Assembly (NCBI GenBank): GCA_041649555.1
Contig: JBAZMS010000002.1
Coordinates: 67,898 to 131,897, forward strand
Origin: Candidatus Micrarchaeia archaeon
GTDB taxonomy: Archaea; Micrarchaeota; Micrarchaeia; Anstonellales; Bilamarchaeaceae
Length of the DNA stretch: 64,000 nt
Direction of reading: 5' to 3'
Positions 6,855 through 51,335 of the stretch are shown here, in pieces. The position numbers and the translations under genes are program-made. Positions within the stretch are counted from its first letter, which is position 1. Every line of letters begins with the position of its first letter. The notes beneath the pieces were generated by a model. That model ran no database searches and was not told the origin of the DNA. It saw nothing but the letters and a program-made list of their open reading frames with translations.

Positions 6855-7901
6855 TTAAATCCCCCTAATAAACTCCCCAAACAACTCCCTGCTATCATTT
6901 GGCCCAGGACAGCTTTCAGGATGAAACTGAACAGAAAATATAGGTTTAGAAATATGCCTCATCCCTTCATTACTATTATCCAATAGATTATAATGAGTAA
7001 CTTCAAAACAAGAAGGAACCTTGGAAACAGCAAACCCGTGATTTTGCGTAGTGATTAGAACCTTTTTCCTAAAACAATCATAAACAGGATGATTACTTCC
7101 CCTATGCCCAAACTTCAATTTATAAGTAGAACCTCCAAATGCATGGGCAATACACTGATGTCCAAGACAAATTCCAAACATAGGCAAATCACAAAGTTCT
7201 CTAATAACCTTATGGACATTTTTCAAAAGAGCAGGATCCCCCGGGCCATTTGAAATTACAACTCCGGAAGGATTAAACTTTCTAATCTCCTCGCTTGTAA
7301 AATTATATGGAACAGAAATAACTTCAATTCCTCTTTTATTCAATTCACGGATTATTCCCATCTTTACCCCTAAATCAATCAATACGACCTTCTTATTTCC
7401 ACTTCCAAACCTTTCAACTTTTGAAGTGCCAACCTTTGATACAAAATCAGTCAAAGAATATTCAAATTTCAAATTTTTAATTATCTTTTCAATATCAGGT
7501 TTTTCATTCTCATATACTGCAAGGCAGGATGAAACTACCCCAAATTCTCTTATTTTTTTGGTAATTTCACGGGTATCCACTCCAAAAATTCCTCCAACCC
7601 CAAAATCTTCCAAATACTTATCAAGGCCAGAAGAAAAATCCAACTCCCTTACAACAAACCCTGATACCCAAACCTTGGAACTCTCGCAATTCTTTATATC
7701 CAACCCATAATTTCCAATCAAAGGATAGGTTAAAGTTAAAATCTGCCCAGCATAGCTTGGATCAGTTAACGCTTCCTGATAGCCCTGCATTGAAGTATTA
7801 AACACTAATTCTCCAGTTCTAAAGCCAATTGCCCCAAATCCAGCCCCAAAAAATACACTTCCATCTGATAATATGAGAACCGCATTTTTATTCATAATCA
7901 T
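6855..7901 (-). CDS. carA: carbamoyl-phosphate synthase small (glutaminase) subunit
   Basis: CarA N-domain 'QGYQEALTDPSYAGQILTLTYPLIGNYG' and GATase 'GICLGHQ'. Start moved from the ORF-track value (8033) to ATG 7901 (MIMNKNAVL), which sits 4 nt downstream of a GGAGGT Shine-Dalgarno; 14-nt overlap with the carB stop. Confidence 0.8.
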   Translation of the reverse strand: MIMNKNAVLILSDGSVFFGAGFGAIGFRTGELVFNTSMQGYQEALTDPSYAGQILTLTYPLIGNYGLDIKNCESSKVWVSGFVVRELDFSSGLDKYLEDFGVGGIFGVDTREITKKIREFGVVSSCLAVYENEKPDIEKIIKNLKFEYSLTDFVSKVGTSKVERFGSGNKKVVLIDLGVKMGIIRELNKRGIEVISVPYNFTSEEIRKFNPSGVVISNGPGDPALLKNVHKVIRELCDLPMFGICLGHQCIAHAFGGSTYKLKFGHRGSNHPVYDCFRKKVLITTQNHGFAVSKVPSCFEVTHYNLLDNSNEGMRHISKPIFSVQFHPESCPGPNDSRELFGEFIRGI

Positions 7902-10900
7902 AAAACCTCCGTATCTCATATTCCTCTTTTGAATACTTTTCAATAGCTTCAACAAACTCAACAGCAGTGCGGATATTTGTAATGCATGGAATTCCAAATT
8001 CAATGCTTTTTCTTCGGATAATAAATCCGTCAATATAGCTTTCCTCTTCCTGCGAGGGAATATTAATCACCAGATCTATTTTTCCAAGGTCAATCAATTC
8101 AATTATATCATAGCTTTCTTTTTCATTTCCAAGCTTATTTACAATTCTGATCTCTCCAATTTCACGAAGTTCAAATGCAGTTCCAGGAGTTGCATATAAA
8201 ATAAATCCAAGGGAATGCAGTTTTCTTGCAATCTCCAAAACTTCTTTTCTGTCTTCTTTGCGGACAGTCAAAAGGACACAACCTTTGGAAGCAACACAAA
8301 TCCCACTTGATTTTAATGCCTTATAATACGCTGATTCAAAATCAGAGCCAATTCCCATGCTCTCTCCGGTGCTTTTCATTTCAGGGCCAAGTAAGATATC
8401 CTCTCCGGGAAGTTTAAGAAAAGGAAAAACAACCCCCTTTACTGCATAATGGGTTATTTTCCTTTCTTTTTCTAAAAGTTTTTCACCAAGCATTGATTCA
8501 ACAGCCAGTTTAACCAGGGAAATATCAATTGATTTGGAAAGAAAAGGAACAGTCCTGCTTGCCCGCGGGTTTGCCTCCAAAATATAAATTTCATTGTCCT
8601 TGACTGCAAACTGGATATTCAAAAATCCGGTTATTCCAAGGGAAAGTGAAATCTCCCGGGTATATTTTTTTATTTTCTCAACTATCTTATAGGATAAATT
8701 GAGGGAAGGAATTACAATATTTGCATCCCCTGAATGCACTCCTGCAAACTCAATGTGCTCCATTACTCCTCCAATGAATACATTAGAGCCGTCACATACT
8801 GCATCAACCTCGCATTCAATTGCATTATCAAGGTATTTATCAATTAATACAGGCTTATCTTCGCTTAGTTCAATTGCACTGTCAATATATTTTTCCAATT
8901 CCACTAAAGAAAACACAATCTGCATTCCGCGCCCTGCAATCACATAAGAAGGGCGCACAATTATTGGATAGCCAAGTTTTTGTGCAGCATCAAATGCCTC
9001 TTCTTTTTTTCTTACAGTAAGGCTTGGGGGCTGTTTTATTTTAAGCCTGTCCATCAAATCCTTGAATTTCTCCCTGTCCTCTGCAATGTCTATACTTTCA
9101 AAAGATGTTCCAAGTATTTTAACCCTGTCTTTTAATTTTTCAGCCAATTTAATTGAAGTCTGTCCTCCAAGCTGCACTATGACCCCTAATAAATTCTCAT
9201 CCAATTCATTCTCAATTATATTCAATACGCTCTCATAATCCAAAGGCTCAAAATATAATCTTGAACTCGAATCAAAATCAGTGCTTACTGTTTCAGGGTT
9301 ATTATTAATCATTACAGATTCAATTCCCATCTTCTTTAAGGCAAAGGAGGCCTGAGAGCAGCAATAGTCAAATTCTATTCCCTGTCCAATCCTTATAGGC
9401 CCTGATCCGATAATTATTACTTTTTTCTTTTTCAAAGAAACTGCCTCGTTTTCAGATTCATAAGTGGAATAAAAATAAGGGGTTATTGCCTCAAATTCTC
9501 CAGAACAGCTGTCAACCATTTTATATACCGGAATTATTCCAAAAGATTTCCTGAGATTTCTTATATTCTCTTCTGTTTTTCCCTTCAGGCTTGCAATTTT
9601 AAGATCACTAATCCCAAGTTTTTTATATTCAGATAGGTTTTCTTTTGTAAGAGTTTCATTTTCAATTTTTTTCTCGGTTAAAATCAGTTTTTCAATTCTT
9701 TTCAAAAACCATCTGTTTATTTTTGTAATAGAATAAATCTCCTCGATTGTTTTTCCATCCCTGAAGGCATCAAAGAGTGCAAATAAGCGGAGATTGGTTG
9801 CAGGCTCAAGATGTTTGATATAATCAAATTTAACAGGAATTTTAATCTCAAGCCCTGCCACTGCCTTTAAGAGAGCCTCTTCAAAACTTCTTCCAATTGC
9901 CATAACCTCTCCGGTACTTTTCATCTGTGTTCCAAGGGTTCTTTTTGCAGAAGAAAACTTGTCAAAAGGCCAGCGGGGAATTTTAACCGTTATATAATCA
10001 AGAGATGGTTCAAGCGAGGAGGTTTTTCCAATTATCGGATTTATGATCTCATTTAGGGTTTTTCCAATGGCAATTTTTGCTGCAATGCGCGCAATAGGAT
10101 ATCCAGTAGCTTTTGATGCAAGGGCAGAAGAACGGGAAAGGCGGGGATTTACTTCAATTACGCTGTATTCTCTAGTTTTCCTGTTATATGCAAACTGGAC
10201 ATTGCATGAACCTTGTATTTCAAGAGCCCGCACTATTTTAATTGAAGCATCACGAAATCTTTGGTGCTCTTTATCAGAAAGGGTTTGTGAAGGCGCAACA
10301 ACAATGCTTTCTCCTGTGTGTATTCCCATTGGGTCAAAATTTTCCATATTGCATATGACAATACAATTATCACCCGAATCCCTGACAATCTCATATTCAA
10401 ATTCCTCCCATCCTTTCACGCTTCTCTCAATTAAAACCTCATGATTCATACTAAGCTTGAATGCAACATCCAGCAGGTTTTTAAGTTCGGTTTCATTATT
10501 TGCAAATCCCCCTCCGCTTCCACCAAGGGTAAATGCAGGGCGCACAATTACAGGGTAATTTATTTTCTCGGCATAAGAATAAGCAGAAGAGTGGTCCTTA
10601 ACACTATAGCTTTCAAGTATTGGAATTCCGATTTCTTTCATCAGGGAATTAAATAATTCCCGGCTCTCGGCTTTTTCAATTGAGTTAAAATCAGTTCCAA
10701 TGAGCTTAACATTATATTTTTCAAGTATTCCCTTTTTTTCAAGCTCAACTGCAAGATTGAGTGCAGTCTGCCCTCCGCAGGTTGCAAGAATTGAATCTAT
10801 TCCCTCGTTTATGATTATTTTTTCAATTGTTTTAATATCCAGGGGCTCAATATAAACTGCATCAGCTGTTTGCCTGTCTGTTTGAATTGTTGCAGGGTTA

Positions 10901-21540: not shown

Positions 21541-22743
21541 ATGATGGATTCAACAATAAAGTTTAGCAAGATTCCAGTAATGAATACAGCCAAACTGGCA
21601 GCCTATATGTTTTTTGCAATAGGGCTTGTCATGGGTCTTATTATTGGACTACCAATGCTGCTTATTAATCTTGGACTGGCACTAGCGTATATAATTCTGT
21701 TCCCGATTGCAATGGTGATTGTTGGAGCAGTTTTTGGAGCTCTATATGCATTTGGAACAAATTATGGATTTAAATATGCAAATGGACTTCCAGTAGATGT
21801 TTCATATCAATCAGGTCAGCAGGTTGTAATAAAAAAATTGTATGCCATAAAATATGGAATAGTTACAGCATTTCAATGGTTATCAATAATAATTATTCCA
21901 TTGGTGCTAATAAGCCTAATTACAATGATTGCAAATATTGGAGCAGGAATTATGCTTCTGGTCATTGGTTTAATTGGGACAGTAGTAGTTGGATTTATAT
22001 TTGGAATAATTAATGCATTTGGAATAAATGTAGGTTTAGGATTTGCAAAAGGATATCCTGTAAATCTTGAGACAACCCAAAATAAAAGTGTTTTAAAATC
22101 AGTTGATGTTACAAAAACAGGGATAGTTCTTGCAGCAAGCTATCTAATATTTGGGATTCTGCTTGCATTAATCATGCTTTTATTCTATGGAATGTTTGCA
22201 GGTATGATCGATACATTTCTTGGTGCAGCAATGTCAACCTCGTCTCTATCTTCAGATGCAACAACTGCCATAGCAATTATTGGCATAGTTGAAATGTTAA
22301 AATCAGTTCTTCTTATAGGCGCAATAATCTTGCCAATAGCCCTTGCAATCCTTGGATTTATCTCAGGTCTTTTAATTGCCTATGGGGTTAATCTTGGATT
22401 TGGAAAAGAGGGTTATCCAATTGGGCTAACTGTTTCATCTGCGAAATTAACCGTCAATTCAGTTGAAACAAAATCAACAGCAAAACTTTTTGCATTCTAT
22501 TATTTGTTTGCAGGATTGTTTGGAGCTGTTTTAGCCTCAATTGTGGTAATGATGGCAAATGCAGGAGCAGGAATATTAAATCTTTTGATTACTCTAGTTC
22601 TTGATGTTATTATCGGTCTTGTAATGGGTTTTGCACTCAAAAAAGGACTTGATGCAATACAAGGCGGATATGTAATCGAAGGAGAAAACCTCAATTTCTT
22701 GCTTGCAGCAGGCACAGAAAAAAAGGCAAAATCAAAAGCATAA
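21541..22743 (+). CDS. hypothetical polytopic membrane protein with a triplicated internal module
   Basis: Three copies of a [TM-TM]-'G(F/L)xxAxG(Y/L)PV(D/N)L...' unit. Confidence 0.3.
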   Translation: MMDSTIKFSKIPVMNTAKLAAYMFFAIGLVMGLIIGLPMLLINLGLALAYIILFPIAMVIVGAVFGALYAFGTNYGFKYANGLPVDVSYQSGQQVVIKKLYAIKYGIVTAFQWLSIIIIPLVLISLITMIANIGAGIMLLVIGLIGTVVVGFIFGIINAFGINVGLGFAKGYPVNLETTQNKSVLKSVDVTKTGIVLAASYLIFGILLALIMLLFYGMFAGMIDTFLGAAMSTSSLSSDATTAIAIIGIVEMLKSVLLIGAIILPIALAILGFISGLLIAYGVNLGFGKEGYPIGLTVSSAKLTVNSVETKSTAKLFAFYYLFAGLFGAVLASIVVMMANAGAGILNLLITLVLDVIIGLVMGFALKKGLDAIQGGYVIEGENLNFLLAAGTEKKAKSKA

Positions 22744-22858: not shown

Positions 22859-23818
22859 ATGCCAAATAATGTCAGTGGTAATATGAAATTTGGTTTTTGG
22901 ATTTTATTATTCGTATCAATAGTTCTGTTTTTTGGCTGTATTTCAAATGAACAAAAAGAACAGGATAAACTACAAGTAGTTGTAAGCTTTTATCCTTTAT
23001 ATGATTTTACAGAAAATATCGCAAAAGATAAAATTGAATTGTCCCTTTTAATTCCTGCAGGTTCAGAGCCGCATTCATATGAACCCAAACCATCAGATAT
23101 AAAAAAATTAAATGAGGCCGATATTTTTATATACAATGGCGCAGGGCTTGAGCCCTGGATTGATAATTTACTTGCAGGAGTTGAAAATCCAAATTTATTG
23201 ATAGTTGATACAAGCAATGGAATCGAATTAATCGAAGGCCACCATCATGAAAAAGAACATGAACTTGGGGAAATTGAAGAGGAACATATGGGTATGGACC
23301 CTCACATATGGCTTGATCCAAAAAACGCGATAACTCAAGTTGAGAACATAAAAGAGTCATTGATAGAAAAAGATCCGGAAAATAAAGAAATTTACCAAAA
23401 GAATGCATATGAATATGCAAATCAATTAGAAGAACTGGATATGGAAATAAAAGAGGCATTCAAAACATGCAGAAAAAAAGAGATATTAATAACCCATGAA
23501 ACCCTAGGTTATTTCTGCAAATCTTATGGGTGTATCCAAATCCCGATTACAGGAATAAGCCATGACGAGGAGCCATCTGCAAAAGATCTAATGGACATAA
23601 TAGACCAGGCGAATGAAAAAAATATCACTTATATCTTTTTTGAGAGCTTAATTGACCCAAAATCAGCAGATACAATCGCAACAGAGATAAACGGAAAAAT
23701 AATGGTTTTTAATACCATCCACGGGCTTTCAAAAGAAGAGCAGGAAAAAAATGAGGATTATATCTCCCTGATGAGAAAAAACATTATAAATATAAAGGAA
23801 GCATTAGATTGCAATTAG
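22859..23818 (+). CDS. znuA: Zn/Mn ABC transporter substrate-binding protein (ZnuA/TroA family)
   Basis: Signal peptide, His-rich loop 'HHHEKEHELGEIEEEH' and 'DPHIWLDP' motif. Confidence 0.7.
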   Translation: MPNNVSGNMKFGFWILLFVSIVLFFGCISNEQKEQDKLQVVVSFYPLYDFTENIAKDKIELSLLIPAGSEPHSYEPKPSDIKKLNEADIFIYNGAGLEPWIDNLLAGVENPNLLIVDTSNGIELIEGHHHEKEHELGEIEEEHMGMDPHIWLDPKNAITQVENIKESLIEKDPENKEIYQKNAYEYANQLEELDMEIKEAFKTCRKKEILITHETLGYFCKSYGCIQIPITGISHDEEPSAKDLMDIIDQANEKNITYIFFESLIDPKSADTIATEINGKIMVFNTIHGLSKEEQEKNEDYISLMRKNIINIKEALDCN

Positions 23819-24585
23819 GTGCAAAGGATTTGAAAAACACAATCGCTGAAATGGAGAATGTTTCATTTAAATATGGAGATACATTGGTACTGGATAGTGT
23901 TTTCCTAAAAATAGAAAAAGGGGATTTTCTTGGAATAATCGGGCCAAACGGCTCAGGAAAAACTACCCTTTTAAAATTATTTCTTGGAATTTTAAAACCA
24001 GACAAAGGAAAAGTAAAATTATTTGGAAAAAATATCGAAAAATTTAAGGAATGGGACAAAATTGCATATATCCCCCAAAAAGCAACTAATTTCGACCAGA
24101 ATTTTCCTGCAACTGTTTTTGAGATTGTTTCCATGGGAAGATTTCCAAAACTCGGGGCTTTTAAGAATTTAGATAAGCATGATTTAAAAAAAATTGAACA
24201 TTCATTAAATCTAGTCGGACTTTTGGAAAAAAAAGATGAGTTTATAGGTTCATTATCCGGAGGCCAGCAACAGAGAGTATTTATTGCAAAAGCATTATGC
24301 CAGGAACCAGAATTGATATTTTTGGATGAGCCTACCACAGGAGTTGATTCAAATTCACAGAAAAATTTTTATGAGATATTAAAAAAATTAAATAAAGAGC
24401 TAAAAATAACATTGGTATTGGTATCCCATGATGTGAGTGCTGCATCAGAGCAGATAAATAAGCTTGCCTGCGTGAATCAGAAAGTAATTTTCCATGATTT
24501 AAAAAAGGATAAGAAACACCATTTACTGTGCAATTATGCCAAAGGAACAAAATCCATCCTGCATGATAGTGAGTTATATGCTTGA
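23809..24585 (+). CDS. znuC: Zn/Mn ABC transporter ATP-binding protein
   Basis: Walker A 'GPNGSGKTT', signature 'LSGGQQQRV', Walker B 'IFLDEP'. Confidence 0.75.
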   Translation: MQLGAKDLKNTIAEMENVSFKYGDTLVLDSVFLKIEKGDFLGIIGPNGSGKTTLLKLFLGILKPDKGKVKLFGKNIEKFKEWDKIAYIPQKATNFDQNFPATVFEIVSMGRFPKLGAFKNLDKHDLKKIEHSLNLVGLLEKKDEFIGSLSGGQQQRVFIAKALCQEPELIFLDEPTTGVDSNSQKNFYEILKKLNKELKITLVLVSHDVSAASEQINKLACVNQKVIFHDLKKDKKHHLLCNYAKGTKSILHDSELYA

Positions 24586-25381
24586 ATTTTTGGAATACGG
24601 ATTTATGCAAAGGGCATTTATTTCAGGAATATTAATTGCCATGGTATGTTCGATAATTGGATTATATTTGGTTTTAAGAAGAATGGCCCTAATCGGAGAC
24701 GGACTGGCGCATATTTCTTTTGGAGGAATTGCAGCAGGAATGTTTTTTGGAATTTATCCTTTAATTTCAGCATTGATATTTTCAATTCTTAGCGTAATTG
24801 GAATACAAAAATTAAAAAAAATGAAGGTTTATGGAGATGCTGCAATTGCAATAATGTTTTCATTTGGCCTTTCTTTGGGTGTGATACTTCTTAGTTACTC
24901 TGGAGGATTTAATGCAGATTTGTTTTCTTATTTATTTGGAAGCATTCTTTCTGTCAGCCAAAATGATTTATACCTTATATCCATTCTTGCAATAGGAGTT
25001 TTATCATTTGTTTTCCTTTTCTATAAAGAATTATTTTATATTACTTTTGATGAAGAAGGAGCAAAGGTTTCAGGAATAAATGTTGAAAGGTTTAATACTG
25101 CCCTTTTAATTTTATGTGCAATTGCAATAGTTATTTCCCTAAGAGTTGTCGGGGTACTTCTTGTTGCATCGTTTATTGCAATTCCTGCATCCACTGCCCT
25201 TTTATTCAGGTCAAGCTTTAAGAATTCAATAATTTTTTCTGCAGTTATTGCAATTTCCTCTATAATTATAGGTCTTAGCGCTTCATACTATCTTGACTTG
25301 GCAGCAGGAGGGGCAGTTGTATTTACACTTGTTCTGGTTTTTGCATTATCCCTAATTTATAAAAATTTATTAAAAAAGTAA
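24536..25381 (+). CDS. znuB: Zn/Mn ABC transporter permease
   Basis: ~8 TM ABC-3 type permease placed after the ATPase. Confidence 0.7.
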   Translation: MPKEQNPSCMIVSYMLEFLEYGFMQRAFISGILIAMVCSIIGLYLVLRRMALIGDGLAHISFGGIAAGMFFGIYPLISALIFSILSVIGIQKLKKMKVYGDAAIAIMFSFGLSLGVILLSYSGGFNADLFSYLFGSILSVSQNDLYLISILAIGVLSFVFLFYKELFYITFDEEGAKVSGINVERFNTALLILCAIAIVISLRVVGVLLVASFIAIPASTALLFRSSFKNSIIFSAVIAISSIIIGLSASYYLDLAAGGAVVFTLVLVFALSLIYKNLLKK

Positions 25382-25414
25382 TAACTTTTAATATTTATTC
25401 CTCCTCTTTTTATT

Positions 25415-25798
25415 ATGCCAATAGTAAGTCTTTCTGTAAATAATAAATTATTAGAGGAAATAAGCCTTCTTATAAAAGAAAAGGGGTATTCAGGGAAATC
25501 CGAAGTATTTCGGGCAGGAATTAGAAAATTAATTGAAGATAAAAAAGAAAAGGAAAAATTATCAGGAAATGTACGGGCTATTCTTATAATTACCCTAAAA
25601 GAGCATGCAGGAGAATTTATTACAGAATTAAAGCATAGGTTTTCAGATATTACTGATACTCAAATCCATACTGGGCTTGGAAAGGAAAAATGCGCAGAAA
25701 TATTTGTTTTAAACGGAGATGCAAACAAAATAAAAAAACTTTTAAATGAACTTGAAACCAGTAAAAAAATAGAAAATGCAAGATTAATCGTTCCATAA
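25415..25798 (+). CDS. NikR-like ribbon-helix-helix metalloregulator
   Basis: N-terminal RHH 'IVSLSVNNKLLEEISLLIKEKGYSGKSEVFRAGIRKLIE'; C-terminal ACT-like domain with a His/Cys cluster. Confidence 0.5.
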   Translation: MPIVSLSVNNKLLEEISLLIKEKGYSGKSEVFRAGIRKLIEDKKEKEKLSGNVRAILIITLKEHAGEFITELKHRFSDITDTQIHTGLGKEKCAEIFVLNGDANKIKKLLNELETSKKIENARLIVP

Positions 25799-25806
25799 TT
25801 TTTGTT

Positions 25807-27366
25807 TTACTTGCTCAAATCTCTTTCATTTGGAGGATTATAACTAGGAAAGTTTGTATCAAGGTCTGGTTTTAATCTTATTATTTCTTTATCATACCAT
25901 CTAAGCATTTTAATTATATATTCTTCATTAAAATTGGAATCCTCTTTTGGAGCATCCAATTCATTAATTTGCATTTGAACTGCATCCGCCATTTCACTAT
26001 CCCCTGCACCTTTTAAATAAGTTAATTCATCCAATAATTCTGATCTTCTTTTTTCTTTTTCTTTTTTGGATGCAGAACTTTCAGGGATTTTTGGTTTGGA
26101 TTTTTTATCATTAAAATCCTTAAGTTTTTGTTCAAACTCTTGTTTGCCTTCCATAATTGCAGCATATTGTTCAAATGCCATATTATTTTTTATTATTGCC
26201 TTTACTCTGGGGTCAATAACTTCCGAAGCATCAGAATAAATTTGATTGCCAATAACAGTAATTTTTCCAGGCACAACAAAATCCCTGCTTGCAGCTTTTG
26301 GAAGTATTACACTTGCCATTTTTCCGCTGTTTTTATTTTTTACAGAATTCATAGTTCCAAATATTACGATAGAGTTATCTTTGCAAAGTTCAATAAATGT
26401 TGATATTTCATCGCATATTTTTGATGATCTGGCTTTGGACACTTTAGCATTGTATATCGCAGCAACATTGGGGGCCATTTTTGCCATTGTTTTATCAATA
26501 ATATTTTCAATTGTTTTTGAAGAGTGTAAAAATTCAATTTCTGGGCATTCTGAAGGCAATTTTAGGATTCTGTTTGCATTTTTATTTTTATCCAATATAT
26601 TAATTTTAAATATTCCTTCATTTAATAGGAAATTATTTATTTTATATTCTATTAGTGTTCTTGAAGAATTTTTCTTTATTATTTCGGGAACTTTTGAAGG
26701 ATCCATAAATGCTGGAGCAGGATGGGTTTCTTGTTTATTCAAATTTAAGACGACCTCTGAATTAGGATAAATGAATATTTCCCGACGATAATCTTCATTT
26801 GAAATAAAATCGTTAATGCGGACATATGAATCATTTTCTGTTCCGATAATATCTCCATCCTCCAATATAAAACCAGAATTTTTTGGATCTAGCACCCTAC
26901 TTCCCATTCCAAATTCTTTAACACAGGGAGGAATAGAACTCTCTGGAAGAAGTATTTTTCTTCCCATACGTTTAACATATGCTTTTCCAGATGCTTTAAA
27001 GTTTGATGAAAATATTGAGGTATCTTTTGTGGCACTAATAAAACTTATGCAATGTTTTTTTAACAATTTTATCTTATCTTTAAATTTTTCATCGTATTCA
27101 TACTTAATAGAAATGCCGTTAATGTGTTTTGTAATCACTATCGGAGGATTTATCTTAAACTCTGCGGAAATTTTTTCGCATTCTTCTAATTCCTCATATA
27201 TTTTTCCGATTTCCTTTCCCTTTTCTTTGTATTCTTCTATTTCTTTTGGATCTAGTTCCATCTCTTTTTTTATTTTTTTTTGAGCATCCTTGTTAATCTT
27301 TGAAATTCTTGCAAGAAATTCTTCATTGCTTTCAATTTTTTTTTCTGCTTTATTTTTTTTAGTCAT
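25807..27366 (-). CDS. hypothetical protein (519 aa), K/E-rich termini
   Basis: Long ORF co-oriented and tightly spaced with the next two genes; no motif recognised. Confidence 0.3.
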   Translation of the reverse strand: MTKKNKAEKKIESNEEFLARISKINKDAQKKIKKEMELDPKEIEEYKEKGKEIGKIYEELEECEKISAEFKINPPIVITKHINGISIKYEYDEKFKDKIKLLKKHCISFISATKDTSIFSSNFKASGKAYVKRMGRKILLPESSIPPCVKEFGMGSRVLDPKNSGFILEDGDIIGTENDSYVRINDFISNEDYRREIFIYPNSEVVLNLNKQETHPAPAFMDPSKVPEIIKKNSSRTLIEYKINNFLLNEGIFKINILDKNKNANRILKLPSECPEIEFLHSSKTIENIIDKTMAKMAPNVAAIYNAKVSKARSSKICDEISTFIELCKDNSIVIFGTMNSVKNKNSGKMASVILPKAASRDFVVPGKITVIGNQIYSDASEVIDPRVKAIIKNNMAFEQYAAIMEGKQEFEQKLKDFNDKKSKPKIPESSASKKEKEKRRSELLDELTYLKGAGDSEMADAVQMQINELDAPKEDSNFNEEYIIKMLRWYDKEIIRLKPDLDTNFPSYNPPNERDLSK

Positions 27367-27372
27367 TAAAAT

Positions 27373-28593
27373 TTACCCTACCTTTACTGCGCCAAATTCT
27401 TTTGTTAGCGGCTTATACTTTCTTGGTTTTTCTAAAATTTCATCTATAGCAACGCCATTTATTTTAGTAGTTTCATTTCTTTTTTTCTTCAATTCTTCCA
27501 TACTTTTTGAAGACATTTTTGCCATTCGCTCTATATTTGCGTTTCCCATTCCCTGCGCATAACCTTTCATCATTCCAAATGATTTTTTTATATCTTTCAT
27601 GTGGCCCTTTTCTTCCATCATTTTAAGCATTTCAGGCAATTCTTTCATTTTTTGCATAATTTCCGGAGTAACCTTGGCTCCGTTTGCCTCGCTTATTTTC
27701 ATAAGTCTTTCCAAATCTTCTGCAGACATTTGTTTTAATGTTTCTAAACCTGCAAGGTTCTGCTCTGCAGTACTCCCCATATCTTTCATTTGGTTTGCCA
27801 TGTCGTTTGGGTCAATTGAAGGCATTGCCCGGGTCATTACTTCTTGAAGAGACATAATTAACTGAATATTATTTTGAAAAATATCATCCATTTGAAGTAA
27901 ACCCCTTCGGTATATTGCATCCTTTGTTATAATTATCTCTTCAGGCATGTTTGATTTTGCAAGAAATGATTTTTTTGTCAATAAATTTGTGTACTCCATT
28001 CCGATTGCCCCAATAGATGTGGATTTCATAGGACAGCTGTATATTACATCTTCATAAATATCAAAAAAACCAGAACCATCCCCGTTCTTAACTGTCATTG
28101 ATGCAATAGGAGTTGTAAATGGATCCTCAGTATGGGAATAAGAGACATGAAAAAATCCTTTTTTTAAAAATACATTTTTTACCAATTCACCATAATGCCT
28201 TTCTTTTGTTTTAGGATTAGTTACATCCCATTTTTCAAATCCAGATAATTGTAATTCGCTATTAGGTCCTGCAAAAATTGTTTTTGAAACCCTATATTTA
28301 AAATCATTATTTGGTTTATCCTTTCCTTTATTATAGGATATATTAATTTGTATTCTGGTTCTTTTTCCAGAATTAATAGTATCCCCGTCCATAAGTTTTG
28401 GATATTCGCTTTTAAATTTATCCAATTTGCTGTGATCTTTGGTCTTTTGAAATTCTTCTATTAATTTAGCCTCAGTTTCTACCGAGGGAATACCTATTTT
28501 TTTTCCATTTTTTCTTTTTATAAATCCATTTGGACCTAATACATATAAATTAATTCTCCCGGTTTCAATATCAAATGTCATCATTTGCGCCAT
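27373..28593 (-). CDS. hypothetical protein with Met-rich SRP54-M-like C-terminal region
   Basis: C-terminus 'EIMQKMKELPEMLKMMEEKGHMKDIKKSFGMMKGYAQGMGNANIERMAKMSS'. No GTPase motifs. Start placed at the internal Met (MAQMMTF) just after the upstream gene's stop; the ORF track extends to 28659. Confidence 0.3.
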   Translation of the reverse strand: MAQMMTFDIETGRINLYVLGPNGFIKRKNGKKIGIPSVETEAKLIEEFQKTKDHSKLDKFKSEYPKLMDGDTINSGKRTRIQINISYNKGKDKPNNDFKYRVSKTIFAGPNSELQLSGFEKWDVTNPKTKERHYGELVKNVFLKKGFFHVSYSHTEDPFTTPIASMTVKNGDGSGFFDIYEDVIYSCPMKSTSIGAIGMEYTNLLTKKSFLAKSNMPEEIIITKDAIYRRGLLQMDDIFQNNIQLIMSLQEVMTRAMPSIDPNDMANQMKDMGSTAEQNLAGLETLKQMSAEDLERLMKISEANGAKVTPEIMQKMKELPEMLKMMEEKGHMKDIKKSFGMMKGYAQGMGNANIERMAKMSSKSMEELKKKRNETTKINGVAIDEILEKPRKYKPLTKEFGAVKVG

Positions 28594-28595
28594 CT

Positions 28596-28913
28596 TTATT
28601 TCAATGCTTCTCCGCATTGCTTGCAGAATTTTGTTCCTATAACATATTCTATATTGCATTTTTCACATTTTACAATTAGACGGAATCCACATTCTGGGCA
28701 GAATTTTGCATCTGGTTCCAGTTTAGCCTTGCATTTTGGACATTTTTCCAAAGGTTTTTTTGATCCTTTTTCATTTTTTAGCGCATCTAAACCTTTTGTT
28801 GCCCCTGCAACAACACTTCCGGTTGCAATATCTCCGGCCTTATAAGTTAAATTATCCTTTGTCCGTTTGAGTACTGTATCCATTACACCATCCAGTATGC
28901 CCATATCTTTCAC
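28596..28913 (-). CDS. double zinc-ribbon protein
   Basis: 'CPKCKAKLEPDAKFCPECG' and 'CEKCNIEYVIGTKFCKQCG'. Confidence 0.45.
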   Translation of the reverse strand: MKDMGILDGVMDTVLKRTKDNLTYKAGDIATGSVVAGATKGLDALKNEKGSKKPLEKCPKCKAKLEPDAKFCPECGFRLIVKCEKCNIEYVIGTKFCKQCGEALK

Positions 28914-29058
28914 CCCATTATCTCAAAATTTTTTGTATATATAACTTAGGGATATTTAAAATTGTTTTTGTTTTGAAAAATCGGTCTTTAAAACAATTTT
29001 TCCAACTTTATAAGATACAAAAGTATTTAAACATATTCTATTATTGTAATATGTTAAT

Positions 29059-29352
29059 ATGAACAAAAAAGAATTATATAAACTGCGCTCCCAAATGTGC
29101 AAATCATTTTCAAATCCGGCAAGACTTGAAATACTAGATAAATTGCGATATAAGGAATTATCTGTTTGTCAAATAATTGAAAAAACAGGGCTTTTGCAGG
29201 CAAATGTATCCCAGCAGCTATCATTTATGAAAAATCAAAAAATTTTAAATTCCCGAAGGGATGGAAAAAACATCTATTATTCAATTTCAGATGAAAGAAT
29301 AATCAAGGCATTTGATTTATTGTTTGAATTTTTAAAATCAAGAAAATATTAG
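29059..29352 (+). CDS. ArsR/SmtB-family HTH transcriptional regulator
   Basis: 'FSNPARLEILDKL...ELSVCQIIEKTGLLQANVSQQLSFMKNQKIL' helix-turn-helix layout. Confidence 0.65.
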   Translation: MNKKELYKLRSQMCKSFSNPARLEILDKLRYKELSVCQIIEKTGLLQANVSQQLSFMKNQKILNSRRDGKNIYYSISDERIIKAFDLLFEFLKSRKY

Positions 29353-29365
29353 AGGTGAAGAAAAA

Positions 29366-29605
29366 ATGGAAAAACCAAAAATAAAAGTGTATTCGACATC
29401 GGCCTGTCCTTATTGCGTCTATGCAAAAGACTTCATAAAGGGGCTTGGTTATGAATTTGAAGATATAAATGTTGGCATCGACCAGAAGGCTGCAATGGAA
29501 ATGGTTCAAAAATCAGGGCAGATGGGCGTTCCGGTAATTGAAATCAATGGACAGATAATAATCGGTTTTGATAAGGCAGGTATAATGAGGGCGCTTGGAA
29601 AATAA
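29366..29605 (+). CDS. glutaredoxin-like protein (CPYC active site)
   Basis: 'YSTSACPYCVYAK' thioredoxin-fold active site; 79 aa. Confidence 0.7.
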   Translation: MEKPKIKVYSTSACPYCVYAKDFIKGLGYEFEDINVGIDQKAAMEMVQKSGQMGVPVIEINGQIIIGFDKAGIMRALGK

Positions 29606-29629
29606 CCTTTATATATAAATATGTTTTAA

Positions 29630-30661
29630 TTGATTATTATGAACTTATCCAAAAAAGAAGAAAAAATCTTAAAATCAATAATTGTTGCTTCAGAAAATGA
29701 TCCAAACAAACCGGAATTTCCAGCAGATAATCCAAAATTTCCAGCCACCCCCACATATAAAATCAAAGTTTTAGGGTTTTCAAATGTTTGGCTAAAAGAT
29801 GAAAGTTATAATCCTACAGGAACTCACAAGGATAGAATGGCATGGGAAATAATTGTAACTTACAGAAATTTCCTGATTGCCAAAAAAAGAGGACAAATTA
29901 AAACTGCCCTCCCAACAATGTCATTAATTTCATCAGGTTCAGCAGCAATTGCAATCCAGACGCAACTTAGAAAGTATAATCTGCCAAATCTTAGGGTTTT
30001 GATTGATAAAAATATTGATAACTTTATTTTAAATGCAATGAAAAAAATCGGTTGCAAAATATATACGATTGATTTGAAAAAAAAATCTTTAGGGTGGAAG
30101 GAGATTTTAGGTATAACTAAAAATCCCAATGGTTTTGATATTACTTCAAGCGAAGCCTTGGACCCTACAACCAGATTTTATGACTGGCTTAGTTATGAAA
30201 TAATAAATTCTTCTCCGGATTATTGTTTCATACCTTTTGGAACAGGCAACCTATTTGAAAATATCCTAAATATTAATAAAAAAGAAGTTTCAACTAAAAA
30301 TCACGACCCCCGTTTCAAAGGCAGACTAGAGATATTGAGAAAATGTAATTTTTTAGGAGCTACCTCTAATAATCCAAAAACAAAAGCAGATAAGTTATAT
30401 GCTCCGCATCTTCCATTCATTCATTTTGATGAACAATGGATTAGATTATACCGCAATGCCGGTTTTTGCGGATCAGAATCAGAGGTATATCCAATAAAAG
30501 AGAAGTTTTTAAATGATGCATTAGAAATTGCAAAAGCCCAAAAAATAAAGTGTGAACCTTCAGGAATTGCAGGTTTGGCATTGCTTCTCCAGATAAGAAA
30601 TAAAATTCCAAAAAACAAAAAAATTCTCATCGTTAATACTGGAAAAACTAAATATCCTTAG
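29630..30661 (+). CDS. PLP-dependent enzyme of the Trp-synthase-beta/Thr-synthase (fold type II) family, atypical
   Basis: 'ESYNPTGTHKDRMAWE' (PLP-Lys in 'THKDR' rather than the usual 'SFKDR') and a glycine loop 'PFGTGNLFENI'. Confidence 0.5.
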   Translation: MIIMNLSKKEEKILKSIIVASENDPNKPEFPADNPKFPATPTYKIKVLGFSNVWLKDESYNPTGTHKDRMAWEIIVTYRNFLIAKKRGQIKTALPTMSLISSGSAAIAIQTQLRKYNLPNLRVLIDKNIDNFILNAMKKIGCKIYTIDLKKKSLGWKEILGITKNPNGFDITSSEALDPTTRFYDWLSYEIINSSPDYCFIPFGTGNLFENILNINKKEVSTKNHDPRFKGRLEILRKCNFLGATSNNPKTKADKLYAPHLPFIHFDEQWIRLYRNAGFCGSESEVYPIKEKFLNDALEIAKAQKIKCEPSGIAGLALLLQIRNKIPKNKKILIVNTGKTKYP

Positions 30662-30715
30662 TTTTGGAAAATAAACATATCCTTTAAATCCTATTTCTTT
30701 TTTATCTATATTTAT

Positions 30716-31561
30716 ATGTCGGAAAAACTAAAATCAACAAAAATAGGCCTTATTGCCAATTTTCTTTTGTTAATCATTAAATTATATTTTGGTTTAATAT
30801 CAGGAAGTCTGGCACTTTTATCTGATGCCCTGAATTCATTTACTGATATTTTGGCATCAATTGGAATATATTTGGCAGTAAAAGAGGGGCAAAAGAAAAA
30901 TGATTCAGATCACCAATTTGGTCATTATGCAGCAGAACCATTATCTGCATTTGTTGTTTCAATTTTGGCGGCAATTCTTGCATTTGAAATTTTAAAAAGT
31001 GCAGTAGAAAAAATAATCTCACCTTCTATATTAAATGTAGGGTTAGTCACTATAGGGGTTGTTTTGCTTGTTTTGGTTACAAAATCTGTTCTTTATTTTT
31101 ATTTTAGAAGCATAAACAAAAAAGAGCCAAGCCAGGCAATGCAGGCATATATGATGGATAGCAAAAACGATGTCGGAGTTTCAGTAATTGTTTTATTTGG
31201 GGTTGCAGGCGCATTTTTGGGTTATCCAATGTTGGATAGCGTATCTGCAATTCTTGTTTCCCTATACATCTTCAAAAACGCATTTGACCTTGGAAAAAAG
31301 AATGTAAATTTTTTAATGGGAAGTTCTCCTGAAAGAGAGGTAATCTATAATTTCGAAAAATTAATCTTAAAAAATAAAAAAGTAAAAAATACAAAAGTAA
31401 TTGCCCATTATTTTGGGGATACATTTCATTTGGATATTACTATAAAAGTTGATAAAGAATTAAATGTTGCAAAAGCCCATTTAATTGCAGAAGAGGTTAA
31501 AAAAGAAATACTAAAACAAGATGATATTTCTCATGTTCAGGTTCATGTGGAGCCGTATTAA
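30716..31561 (+). CDS. cation diffusion facilitator (CDF) family metal efflux transporter
   Basis: TM2 'LLSDALNSFTD' and TM5 'DSKNDVGVS' metal-site motifs; a C-terminal cytoplasmic domain. Confidence 0.7.
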   Translation: MSEKLKSTKIGLIANFLLLIIKLYFGLISGSLALLSDALNSFTDILASIGIYLAVKEGQKKNDSDHQFGHYAAEPLSAFVVSILAAILAFEILKSAVEKIISPSILNVGLVTIGVVLLVLVTKSVLYFYFRSINKKEPSQAMQAYMMDSKNDVGVSVIVLFGVAGAFLGYPMLDSVSAILVSLYIFKNAFDLGKKNVNFLMGSSPEREVIYNFEKLILKNKKVKNTKVIAHYFGDTFHLDITIKVDKELNVAKAHLIAEEVKKEILKQDDISHVQVHVEPY

Positions 31562-33074
31562 CCTAGATAGGTTACTAATCCTCTTCCTTTAGATTCACTT
31601 GCAATTACTTCGAGTTGACAGTTAAATTCAATTGGGTATTTTCTTTCGTCTTTAGGTATTGCAAGCCCCATTTTTTCCATCAGATTTTTTATAAAAAACA
31701 GAGCCTCTAATTTATTATCATGTATTGCAATTTTTTTTACTTCCCTTAAAAGTCCTTCCATATGGCCCCTTAAAGTTCCCCCATAAGGTATTTTTCCAAG
31801 TATTATCATTGCACTCATATTGTTATAATTTTCATATCCCATATCCACAAAATTAAATGCTGTACTTACATTGTGTGCGCTTAAAACTAATGCGTAATTT
31901 TTATGAGTTTTATTATACTCTGCCAATCTATCTAAACTTCCCCTATCACAAACCCAAAATGCTCCGTTACACATTACTTTTCCGCTTCCATATATTTCAT
32001 CCCCGCATAAAAGAAGAACATTTTTTGGATTTTGGGGAAATTCCATATAATCTATTTGTGTATTAATTTCTGAAAGTTGGGTTAGGTAATTGAGTTCTGT
32101 TGGGGCATTCTCAATCAAATCCATTACGCTTGCAAATTCAAGATATAATCTTTCTCCAGTTAACTTTTCTAATTGTATCATGGATTCTTTTAATTTTAAA
32201 AGAGTAAATTTATTGGCCAATGTATCTGCTTTATTAAATATATCTGGAGTTTCACTTTCCTCAAAGATATATCTTCCGGTATCAAACTCATTATTTTCAT
32301 TAATTACATGGGCCATGCAGGCAAGTTCCCGATATCTTCTATTTCTTGAAAAATAATAATCATCTAGGTTTCTTCCATTAATATTTTTTAAATTGAACAG
32401 TTCTCCAAATCCTCCAACTGCCAAACTTGCAAGACCAAAAACAAATTTAATATATCCCTCATTATATGCAGTTGAAGTATATCCAAATCCTGAAATTGCC
32501 GGCGCAAAAACATCAATGAATTGCCCGTTGATTATTTTTGTTTCATCAATGTTTCTCCCCATCTGTTTTAGTTTGTTAATAAAGCGGGATCCAAAAAGCA
32601 GTTATATTCTCTTCCAATCATAGGTTCGATAATTATTGCCATTCCAGAATTAAATCCCGCATCTTTTCTAAATGCAATTGCAGAAGGAGTATTTTCACTA
32701 TCAAGCACTTCATTTATTGCAGTTATTAATTCGTTTAAATTATTTTTACAAAATACGCTTTTATAAGCTCCAAACCCCCGTGAATCCCCATTTGCAGAAG
32801 ACCTTACAACCAAAAAAGGGCTACTGTTTAATATTTTAAGAATGAGTTTTAGATCATCAATTTCTTTATCAGTATATCTTTTTTCATTACTTTTTAATTT
32901 CTCAGTCCACTCCATTGAAAGTACTGCCCTTGGGTTTATGCTAAAACCAGCTTCTTCTATAGCCATGCTTTTGTCATATAACTGCCAGGCCTTTTCACCA
33001 AGCAATCTTCCACCTATCAAATGCCAGTTATTTTGATAATGAGTTTTTGCTTTTTTTCCAATAAGTTTCCCCAT
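31558..33074 (-). pseudogene. PPDK_N (PEP/pyruvate-binding, PEP-synthase/rifampin-phosphotransferase-like) domain gene split by a frameshift
   Basis: Upstream ORF (33074-32568) carries 'LVVRSSANGDSRGFGAYKSVF', the PPDK_N hallmark (VRSSA...SFAG). It stops 5 nt before the ATG of the 334-aa ORF (32562-31558), which is in another frame, and that second frame is closed only 5 codons upstream. Confidence 0.5.
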
Positions 33075-49762: not shown

Positions 49763-51335
49763 TTGGAGGTGATCTATCCGCAGGTTCCCCTACGGATACC
49801 TTGTTACGACTTAGCCCTCCTCACACTTCCCCGATTCGAACCTGACTATGATCAGGGCCTCATCGAAAAAATATTCGGATGACTTGACGGGCGGTGTGTG
49901 CAAGAAGCAGGGACACATTCACCGCGAGATAGTGACTCGCGATTACTAGCCATTCCAGCTTCATGAGGGTGAGTTGCAACCCTCAATTCGAACTATGGTT
50001 GGATTTAGGGGATTTGCTTCTCCTCTCGGAGTTGCGGCCCATTGTTCCAATCACTGTATGCCGCGTGTAGCCCAAGGCATTCGGGCCATACTGACCTACC
50101 GTCGCCCACTTCTTCCTCCCATTTAACACGGGCAGTCCTCTTAAAGTGCTCCATATCCGCAGATATAGATAGCAACTAAGAGCATGGGTCTCGCTCGTTT
50201 CAGGACTTAACCTGACAGTTCACACCACGAGCTGACGATGGCCATGCAACACCTCTCGGCTTGTCAGGCAAGATCTTTAGTCTGACCTTCATACTGCCGT
50301 CGGCCTTGGTGATATTTCTGGCGTTGTATCCAATTAAACCGTAGCATCCACGGCTTGTGGTGCTTCCCCGCCAATTCCTTTAAGTTTCAATCTTGCGATC
50401 GTACTCCCCAGGCGGCAGACTTAACACTTACATACCTAAAACTTAAAAATTTAAGTTATAAGGTTCTACGCTACAGCACTTCCCTAACTTACGTTAGAGA
50501 AACACCAGAGTCTGCATCATTTACTGCTAGGACTACCGGGGTCTCTAATCCCGTTCGCTCCCCTAGCCTTCGTCCCTCACCGTCAGAAACGTTTTGATTG
50601 GGCGCCTTCGCCACTGATAGTCCACCTAGGATCAACGGATCGTAATCTTTAAATTGCAAATTTTAGACGCAGTTTAAAGATTTTTACCCCTACCCCAGGT
50701 GTACTCCCAATCTCCCCCGTTCTCTAGCCTAACAGTATCTACTGCACGCCTTAGAGTTAAGCCCTAAGATTTCACAGTAGACTTAATAAGCCGGCTACGG
50801 ACGCTTTAGGCCCAGTATACGTGGGTACCACTCGAGGCGCTGGTATTACCGCGGCGGCTGCCACCAGTCTTTCCCACACCCTTATTCTCCAAGTTATTTA
50901 CACTTGGCAAAAGACATTGGCAAAGCCAATGCCACTCAGAATCCCCCTATCACGCTTTCGCGCATTGTAAAGTTTTCGTCCCTGCTGCATCCCGTAGGAC
51001 TAGGGCCCTTGTCTCAGTGCCCTTCTGGGGGCCACCACTCTCATGGCCCCTAGAGATTATAGGTTTGGTGAGCCGTTACCACACCAACAGCCTAATCCCC
51101 CGCAGTCCCGTCCTATGGCGGTCTGGCTACAATTTGCCAGCCTTTTGAATGATTAAGCATTCCAGCATAAATCATCTATCGTGGATTATCCTCAGTTTCC
51201 CGAGGTTATACACGTCCTTAGGGTAGGTTGACTACGTGTTACTCAGCCTTGTGCCACTTTTGGAAGCCCAAAAGTAGACTTGCATGGTTTATTCGGATTC
51301 TGATAGCAGTACCCTCCAGTAGGATCAACTGGAAT
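49763..51335 (-). rRNA. rrs: 16S ribosomal RNA (stand-alone, no linked 23S or spacer tRNA)
   Basis: Minus-strand reading gives 5' 'ATTCCAGTTGATCCTACTGGAGGGTACTGCTATCA...' and 3' '...AAGTCGTAACAAGGTATCCGTAGGGGAACCTGCGGATAGATCACCTCC'. Universal blocks are present (the 515 region 'GTGGCAGCCGCCGCGGTAATAC', the 806 region 'GGATTAGAGACCCCGGTAGTCC'). Confidence 0.9.

Follow-up and report, generated by a model that had tools for sequence, protein, structure and literature searches.

Within a stretch of 64,000 nucleotides from a Candidatus Micrarchaeia archaeon (assembly GCA_041649555.1, contig JBAZMS010000002.1, positions 67,898 to 131,897 of the forward strand; hereafter the window, with a guanine plus cytosine (GC) content of about 31%), three minus-strand genes that we call D, B and C form a chromosomal, cellular module which is neither viral nor a defence system and which encodes three soluble cytoplasmic proteins without an enzyme domain. 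This conclusion is well supported, and so is the finding that the two large products, B and C, are paralogues, in each of which a divergent beta domain of the FecR type is linked to helical bundles. The third product, D, is a small protein with a double zinc ribbon.

An initial annotation of the region had described an uncharacterised operon of three co-oriented and tightly packed genes at 25807-28913, with non-enzymatic products. The open reading frames (ORFs) are indeed there, at 28596-28913 (D), 27373-28659 (B) and 25807-27366 (C) when each is taken at its longest. Neither B nor C matched a family in Pfam, NCBIfam, PHROGs or PADLOC, no enzyme domain was recognised for either protein in these family scans, and no description of the module was found in the literature on DPANN hypothetical families or on FecR-like cytoplasmic proteins, so that the operon can still be called uncharacterised and its proteins devoid of a recognisable catalytic motif. 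Profile searches with B and C gave no matches among the sequences of the PDB either. Homologues were found for B (46, with 40-64% identity), for C (35, with 33-68%) and for D (27, of about 100 residues, with 47-85%), and the adjacency of the three genes is kept in other genomes, which indicates that they are real genes and not chance ORFs. In the annotations of these homologues the proteins are unnamed, 'hypothetical' (all those of C are one or the other) or generic zinc-ribbon proteins. All three proteins are predicted to be soluble because no 19-residue segment exceeds a Kyte-Doolittle hydropathy of 1.0: the maxima are 0.55 for B, 0.96 for C and 0.68 for D, and no transmembrane segment was detected in any of them.

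Two paralogous proteins and a double zinc ribbon

When the family profiles of B and C were compared with hhalign, residues 3-180 of B aligned to residues 113-293 of C with a probability of 97.4% and an E-value of 1.4e-11, from which it follows that the beta domains are homologous and the two proteins paralogues. A beta domain with the FecR fold was found in both of them. In a Foldseek comparison with the viral models of BFVD, the single significant match was a phage protein itself annotated as 'FecR protein', and this independent match makes the fold assignment, which is based on models, a solid one.

The nearest known fold is the C-terminal periplasmic cell-surface signalling domain of FecR/PupR-type anti-sigma factors (PDB 6ovm and 4m0h). 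Unlike these factors, B and C have neither a transmembrane helix nor an N-terminal anti-sigma domain, and in B the beta domain starts with the first residue; they are cytoplasmic, fused to helical bundles, and constitute a paralogous pair with a zinc-ribbon partner. Neither an extracytoplasmic function (ECF) sigma factor nor a TonB-dependent partner is present; the host is archaeal, and the neighbouring genes encode metal transporters and regulators, none of which recurs across loci. We do not claim an STN subdomain for B or C. In FoxR and FecR the FecR domain carries a conserved Gly-Thr self-cleavage site. The position that we judge equivalent, in a register that is not fixed structurally, reads G-[FGST]-F-D-V, and GT or GS occurs in some members only. 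What appears to be new is the FecR fold, known from bacterial periplasmic signalling, in a soluble, cytoplasmic and paired architecture of archaea and of bacteria of the Candidate Phyla Radiation (CPR).

Gene B (27373..28584, minus strand) encodes 403 residues and its product is 100% identical to a hypothetical protein (P0001) from a metagenome-assembled genome (MAG) of Candidatus Micrarchaeia. The AlphaFold2 model built from the family alignment has a mean predicted local distance difference test score (pLDDT) of 91.2 and a predicted template modelling score (pTM) of 0.82. It begins with the FecR-like beta domain (residues 1-230; 27895..28584), in which a helical hairpin at about residues 35-60 is variable and missing in some homologues, and continues with a methionine-rich helical bundle (residues 234-385; 27430..27885), whose main helices span residues 259-285, 288-300, 307-325 and 328-372 and whose pLDDT is about 80-90. 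The family alignment then defines a conserved C-terminal tail, PRKYKPLT..FGAVKV[GA] (residues 386-403; 27376..27429), in which V402 shows no variation and P387, R388, Y390, P392 and L393 hardly any. This tail is modelled as short strands with a pLDDT of 95-96, and it may dock on the beta domain.

The methionine-rich string which the initial annotation had quoted for this protein is present word for word. Methionine accounts for 11% of the C-terminal domain of B (range 8-14% in 41 members), compared with 2.1% of the N-terminal domain and 2.4% of the ORFs of the window, and it provides 37% of the large hydrophobic residues (M, L, I, V and F together) in the bundle, a share that is 8% in the N-terminal domain. 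Of the 20 alignment columns in which at least half of the sequences have methionine, 16 fall at residues 232-338. Methionine enrichment is a conserved property of the family and is confined to the helical bundle of B.

This composition had led to the comparison of the tail of B with the M domain of SRP54. B is like the M domain of SRP54/Ffh, the DP domains of Sti1/Hop and the C-terminal domain of Sgt2 in being helical, with methionine as the main large hydrophobic residue and with this feature conserved in its family. Domains that grip varied hydrophobic segments typically have such a composition. Unlike SRP54/Ffh, B is not fused to an NG GTPase domain: no GTPase family was matched in Pfam or NCBIfam, in agreement with the initial annotation, and the N-terminal part is instead the FecR-like beta domain. 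No SRP54 or Ffh chain was retrieved at E <= 10 when the profile of the bundle was searched against the PDB, and no match of the SRP_SPB type is present among the Pfam families listed for the 41 scanned members of the B family. As far as these sequence searches go, the methionine-rich helical composition stands and the homology to the SRP54 M domain does not; the likeness is one of composition only, compatible with a pliable hydrophobic binding surface and no proof of one.

Gene C (25807..27366, minus strand) encodes a soluble paralogue of B, of 519 residues, whose content of lysine plus arginine (17.3%) and of aspartate plus glutamate (16.0%) bears out its earlier description as a K/E-rich protein of this length. 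Its AlphaFold2 model, also from the family alignment, has a mean pLDDT of 82.8 and a pTM of 0.69. The N-terminal helical hairpin (residues 14-72; 27151..27327), with helices at 14-35 and 40-72 in the model, ends in the conserved motif EELEECxKIxxEFKxNPP, in which E59, C63, F70 and P74 are invariant. It is followed by the FecR-like beta domain with insertions (residues 76-380; 26227..27141), where the motifs KR, DGD, PNSE and G[FI]F are common to B, and by long C-terminal helices (residues 386-502; 25861..26211) modelled at 386-423, 431-454, 457-471 and 481-502, which are not methionine-rich. After them comes a conserved FP.YN.P tail, with Y509 invariant and P507 nearly so.

Gene D (28596..28904, minus strand) encodes 102 residues, in which a variable linker joins an N-terminal peptide to a double zinc ribbon of eight cysteines. 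The assignment as a double zinc ribbon (DZR), made earlier from the sequence, was borne out, with 42.7 bits for PF12773 against a cut-off of 27.3 and 42.6 bits for PF13240. In 19 orthologues both the N-terminal motif MG[ILF][LF]D...[LV][TS][YW][KR][AV]G and the cysteine pattern CPKC...CPxCG...CxxC...CxQCG are conserved. D thus resembles other DZR proteins in passing the family threshold and in its four CxxC-type knuckles, and differs from them in its family-specific N-terminal peptide and in the strict linkage of its gene to B and C; the DZR family is itself without a defined function. The MG[ILF][LF]D start resembles the N-terminus of PspA/Vipp1, and this likeness suggested an amphipathic membrane-binding helix at the N-terminus of D (28850-28904), an idea that was dropped, as the hydrophobic moment was not above that of shuffled controls (mean 0.31, z 0.6).

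Conservation and distribution of the module

The three genes lie side by side in each of the 17 loci from GTDB species-representative genomes in which the contig is long enough, including a variant with 25% identity, and several of the D homologues share contigs with B and C. With metagenomes added, 43 dereplicated loci were available, and in these too the three genes stay together: C always lies directly after B, an order that never varies, and D may be upstream, downstream or divergent. The gap between B and C is usually -8 to +14 nucleotides. We clustered the flanking ORFs of these loci, and no other family was found in more than five of the 43, the top two being a UvrA-like protein (as read from its representative sequence) and a small cupin. 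The module is therefore self-contained, and conserved neighbours provided no indication of its function.

In many lineages outside the clade of the window, a fourth gene, S, of about 78-95 codons, stands beside the three, in the order S-B-C-D or B-C-S-D (for example at 7761-7997 of locus L003, at 5699-5986 of L005 and, on the minus strand, at 11482-11766 of L025); it is absent from the window. The S profile matches both Nfu-type domains of the chloroplast NifU-like protein 2 (2z51_A, E 6.8e-4), but, unlike the C-terminal (Nfu-type) domain of NifU, S is without the CxxC cluster-binding motif. In the most divergent variants of the module (L022, at 7694-9157, L062 and L063, with about 25-29% identity), a third B/C-like paralogue is located just downstream of C, and D is divergently transcribed.

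An exhaustive profile search of 1.84 billion protein representatives returned 34 clusters at 50% identity, with proteins of about 350-410 residues, fragments and a few weak hits. None of the 34 clusters carries a fused domain, so that this search gave no hint of function from domain fusions, and Pfam scans of the ten most distant family members revealed nothing meaningful. Among the carriers are Micrarchaeota, including Candidatus Fermentimicrarchaeum limneticum with its complete genome, as well as a MAG of Candidatus ainarchaeum and MAGs labelled Woesearchaeota, Pacearchaeota and Nanoarchaeota. The module is thus not unique to this genome, as an ORFan would be, since several DPANN groups and, apparently, CPR bacteria carry it; of the suggestion that it is lineage-specific, the narrow distribution is retained and the restriction to one lineage is not.

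The domain of the carriers was assigned from about 20 kb around each gene. Local genes identify as archaeal the window (by its 16S rRNA), L025 (S27e, S24e, Spt4 and Rpb7) and L016 (a PINA-type ATPase). Seven contigs with the module are labelled Paceibacterota, Minisyncoccia or Saccharibacteria: L023 (10001-11626 and flanks), L003, L015, L017, L018, L020 and L021. In L023 the neighbours are TruB and TypA/BipA, the latter with 816 bits against an equivalog cut-off of 757, and bacterial-type neighbours are present also in L003 (RsgA), in L017 (a family-1 uracil-DNA glycosylase, Ung) and in L015 (UvrC and the D-Ala-D-Ala ligase Ddl). In neighbour-joining trees a putative bacterial clade is nested inside the archaeal diversity. 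Because of these bacterial-type neighbours and of this nesting, it is probable, though not proven, that the module passed from one domain to the other, between the DPANN archaea and the CPR, given that genes of bacterial type are also known from DPANN genomes (PMC8204110). According to the same paper, only few of the DPANN families of unknown function have also been detected in bacteria, which would make a module shared across the two domains an uncommon case.

It had also been proposed that the three genes are a virus-derived structural cluster. No PHROG was matched by B or C, no relatives were found among the 2.9 million contigs of IMG/VR, and the virion proteins in BFVD showed no structural match to the proteins of the module, the lone BFVD match being the FecR-annotated one mentioned above; a viral origin was rejected on these three negatives. 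In PADLOC the best results were an E-value of 0.0041 (14 bits) for B and 0.11 for D, with none for C, and on this negative a defence system was rejected as well.

Gene boundaries and genomic setting

Two details of the initial annotation changed when the gene starts were corrected. Since every homologue of B begins with M-x-FDIETG, and since the identical database protein has 403 residues, B starts at 28584 or at 28593 and not at 28659; the length of 428 residues given earlier was an artefact of taking the longest ORF. With this start, the overlap reported between the stop of D and the region before B vanishes: the stop of D is at 28596-28598, and B begins 2-11 nucleotides beyond it. For D itself, the most likely start is the ATG at 28904 and not the GTG at 28913, the ATG being 6 nucleotides after a Shine-Dalgarno-like GGGGTG (28911-28916, minus strand). 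Farther upstream, the sequence contains a TATA-like element, TTTAAATA (28953-28960, minus strand). Both elements were read directly from the sequence and are putative expression signals of D. The stop of B and the start of C are separated by 6 nucleotides, and C ends 8 nucleotides from a convergent NikR-like gene.

This NikR-like regulator belongs to a group of metal-homeostasis genes on one flank (22859-25798, plus strand), together with ZnuA, an ATP-binding cassette (ABC) ATPase (ZnuC) and an ABC-3 permease (ZnuB). On the other flank (29059-31561, plus strand) are genes for an ArsR protein, a glutaredoxin, a pyridoxal phosphate-dependent enzyme and a cation-efflux (CDF) transporter. Two ORFs near the module are without a Pfam match at E <= 1e-5, one of 400 codons at 21541-22743 (plus strand) and one of 334 codons at 31558-32562 (minus strand). 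Base composition does not shift at the locus, where the GC fraction is 0.31, compared with 0.27-0.36 elsewhere in the window, the rRNA region excepted.

A complete archaeal 16S rRNA gene (49764-51335, minus strand) stands alone: within the 64 kb no 23S or 5S rRNA gene was found at the Rfam threshold, and ARAGORN found no tRNA gene anywhere in the window. A possible reason is that the rRNA genes are unlinked and the tRNAs atypical or split, as has often been reported for DPANN archaea. The 16S rRNA gene and the identity of B to a protein of Candidatus Micrarchaeia mark the host as a DPANN archaeon.

Possible functions

Concerning the function, we tentatively propose that B, C and D form a soluble, non-enzymatic holder or adaptor complex for hydrophobic cargo, which we regard as a possible rather than a probable reading. 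The genes for B and C, fixed in their order, would be translationally coupled, and their products would assemble into a hetero-oligomer, as is suggested by the constant gene order and by intergenic gaps that are tiny or negative. For the FecR-fold domains we envisage the part that they play in anti-sigma factors, that of modules on which proteins dock; the conserved C-terminal tails, and perhaps also D with its N-terminal peptide, would be bound to them by strand addition. The bundle of B, lined with methionines, would offer a pliable hydrophobic surface for the binding of non-polar partners, for instance lipids or hydrophobic segments of peptides, and D would serve as the adaptor. Such a complex would be independent of domain-specific machinery, and this independence would explain how the module could work in archaea and in bacteria. 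A chaperone or targeting role, as offered by the initial annotation, is possible.

It should be noted that several points weigh against this proposal. The identity of B and C to FecR-fold structures is only 5-13%, a similarity at the level of the fold alone, and PF04773 (FecR) matched neither protein at E <= 1 and is absent from the Pfam families listed for the 41 scanned members of the B family; with such low identity and no match to this family, the beta domains may be a very divergent FecR branch or a fold-level relative. Homology of the bundle to the SRP54 M domain, to Sti1 or to Sgt2 was rejected, as neither the search of the bundle profile against the PDB nor the Pfam scans of individual members gave a match. 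The bundle is closed and confident in the model, and its methionines may simply form its core. A rare and patchy family of 34 clusters is what one would expect of an accessory function more than of a core one. Complex formation, the docking of tails and peptide, and the role with hydrophobic cargo are all steps that we infer.

The same architecture could be read as that of a self-assembling scaffold or cytoskeleton-like structure, in which B and C polymerise and D anchors or nucleates the polymer, perhaps head to tail, with the C-terminal tails of B and C docking in trans on the beta domains. The lack of an enzyme domain, the tight coupling of a paralogous pair, the long helices and conserved terminal peptides in both B and C, and the autonomy of a module that works in two domains of life all speak in its favour, and the layout, in which a beta domain is combined with a helical region and a terminal peptide, is loosely reminiscent of CdvA; we consider it unlikely, and nonetheless give it more weight than any other alternative. 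A cytoplasmic sensor or regulator, whose FecR folds would sense a ligand or partner and whose zinc-ribbon protein would pass the signal on to nucleic acid or to the machinery of transcription or translation, is distinctly unlikely: the names in the annotations are automatic labels derived from the zinc ribbon alone, the module is without a transmembrane segment, anti-sigma domain, sigma factor or helix-turn-helix, no conserved target gene adjoins it, and the same genes are found in archaea and bacteria, whose transcription machineries differ.

That the methionine-rich bundle and the eight cysteines of D buffer or chaperone zinc, copper or nickel would suit the neighbourhood in the window, with ZnuA/ZnuC/ZnuB and the NikR-like gene on one side and ArsR, glutaredoxin and CDF on the other, as well as the known binding of Cu(I) by the methionine clusters of some proteins. 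This metal-gene context, however, is not conserved at the other loci and was discarded as a link, copper sites made only of methionine typically belong to proteins of the periplasm or the cell exterior and B is a cytoplasmic protein, and the cysteines of D are standard structural zinc-ribbon knuckles, so that metal handling appears very unlikely. The least probable of the alternatives, in our estimation, is that the module is mobile-element, viral or anti-viral cargo and passes laterally between archaea and bacteria of ultra-small size. The rare and patchy occurrence, and the putative bacterial clade inside the archaeal diversity, which suggests inter-domain transfer, would be in line with it; against it are the searches in PHROGs (for B and C), PADLOC, IMG/VR and the virion proteins of BFVD, all without relatives, the uniform base composition, and the ordinary housekeeping genes that surround the module, among which no integrase or transposase was seen.

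The symbiotic lifestyle of DPANN archaea and of CPR bacteria is thought to be based on the hypothetical proteins by which their genomes are dominated. From this material, a compact and always linked gene set, D, B and C, often accompanied by a NifU-like gene, is now defined, with confident models for both large proteins; it is rare and apparently common to both radiations of ultra-small cells. Returning to the holder or adaptor complex, the module might more specifically be a self-contained cytoplasmic machine that moved between DPANN and CPR and serves a need specific to ultra-small, host-dependent cells, a speculation which we rate as less probable than a regulator. If it is true, such a need could be, for example, the holding and handing over of scavenged hydrophobic cargo, such as host-derived lipids or segments of membrane proteins, by a methionine-lined bundle built on a repurposed cytoplasmic FecR fold.

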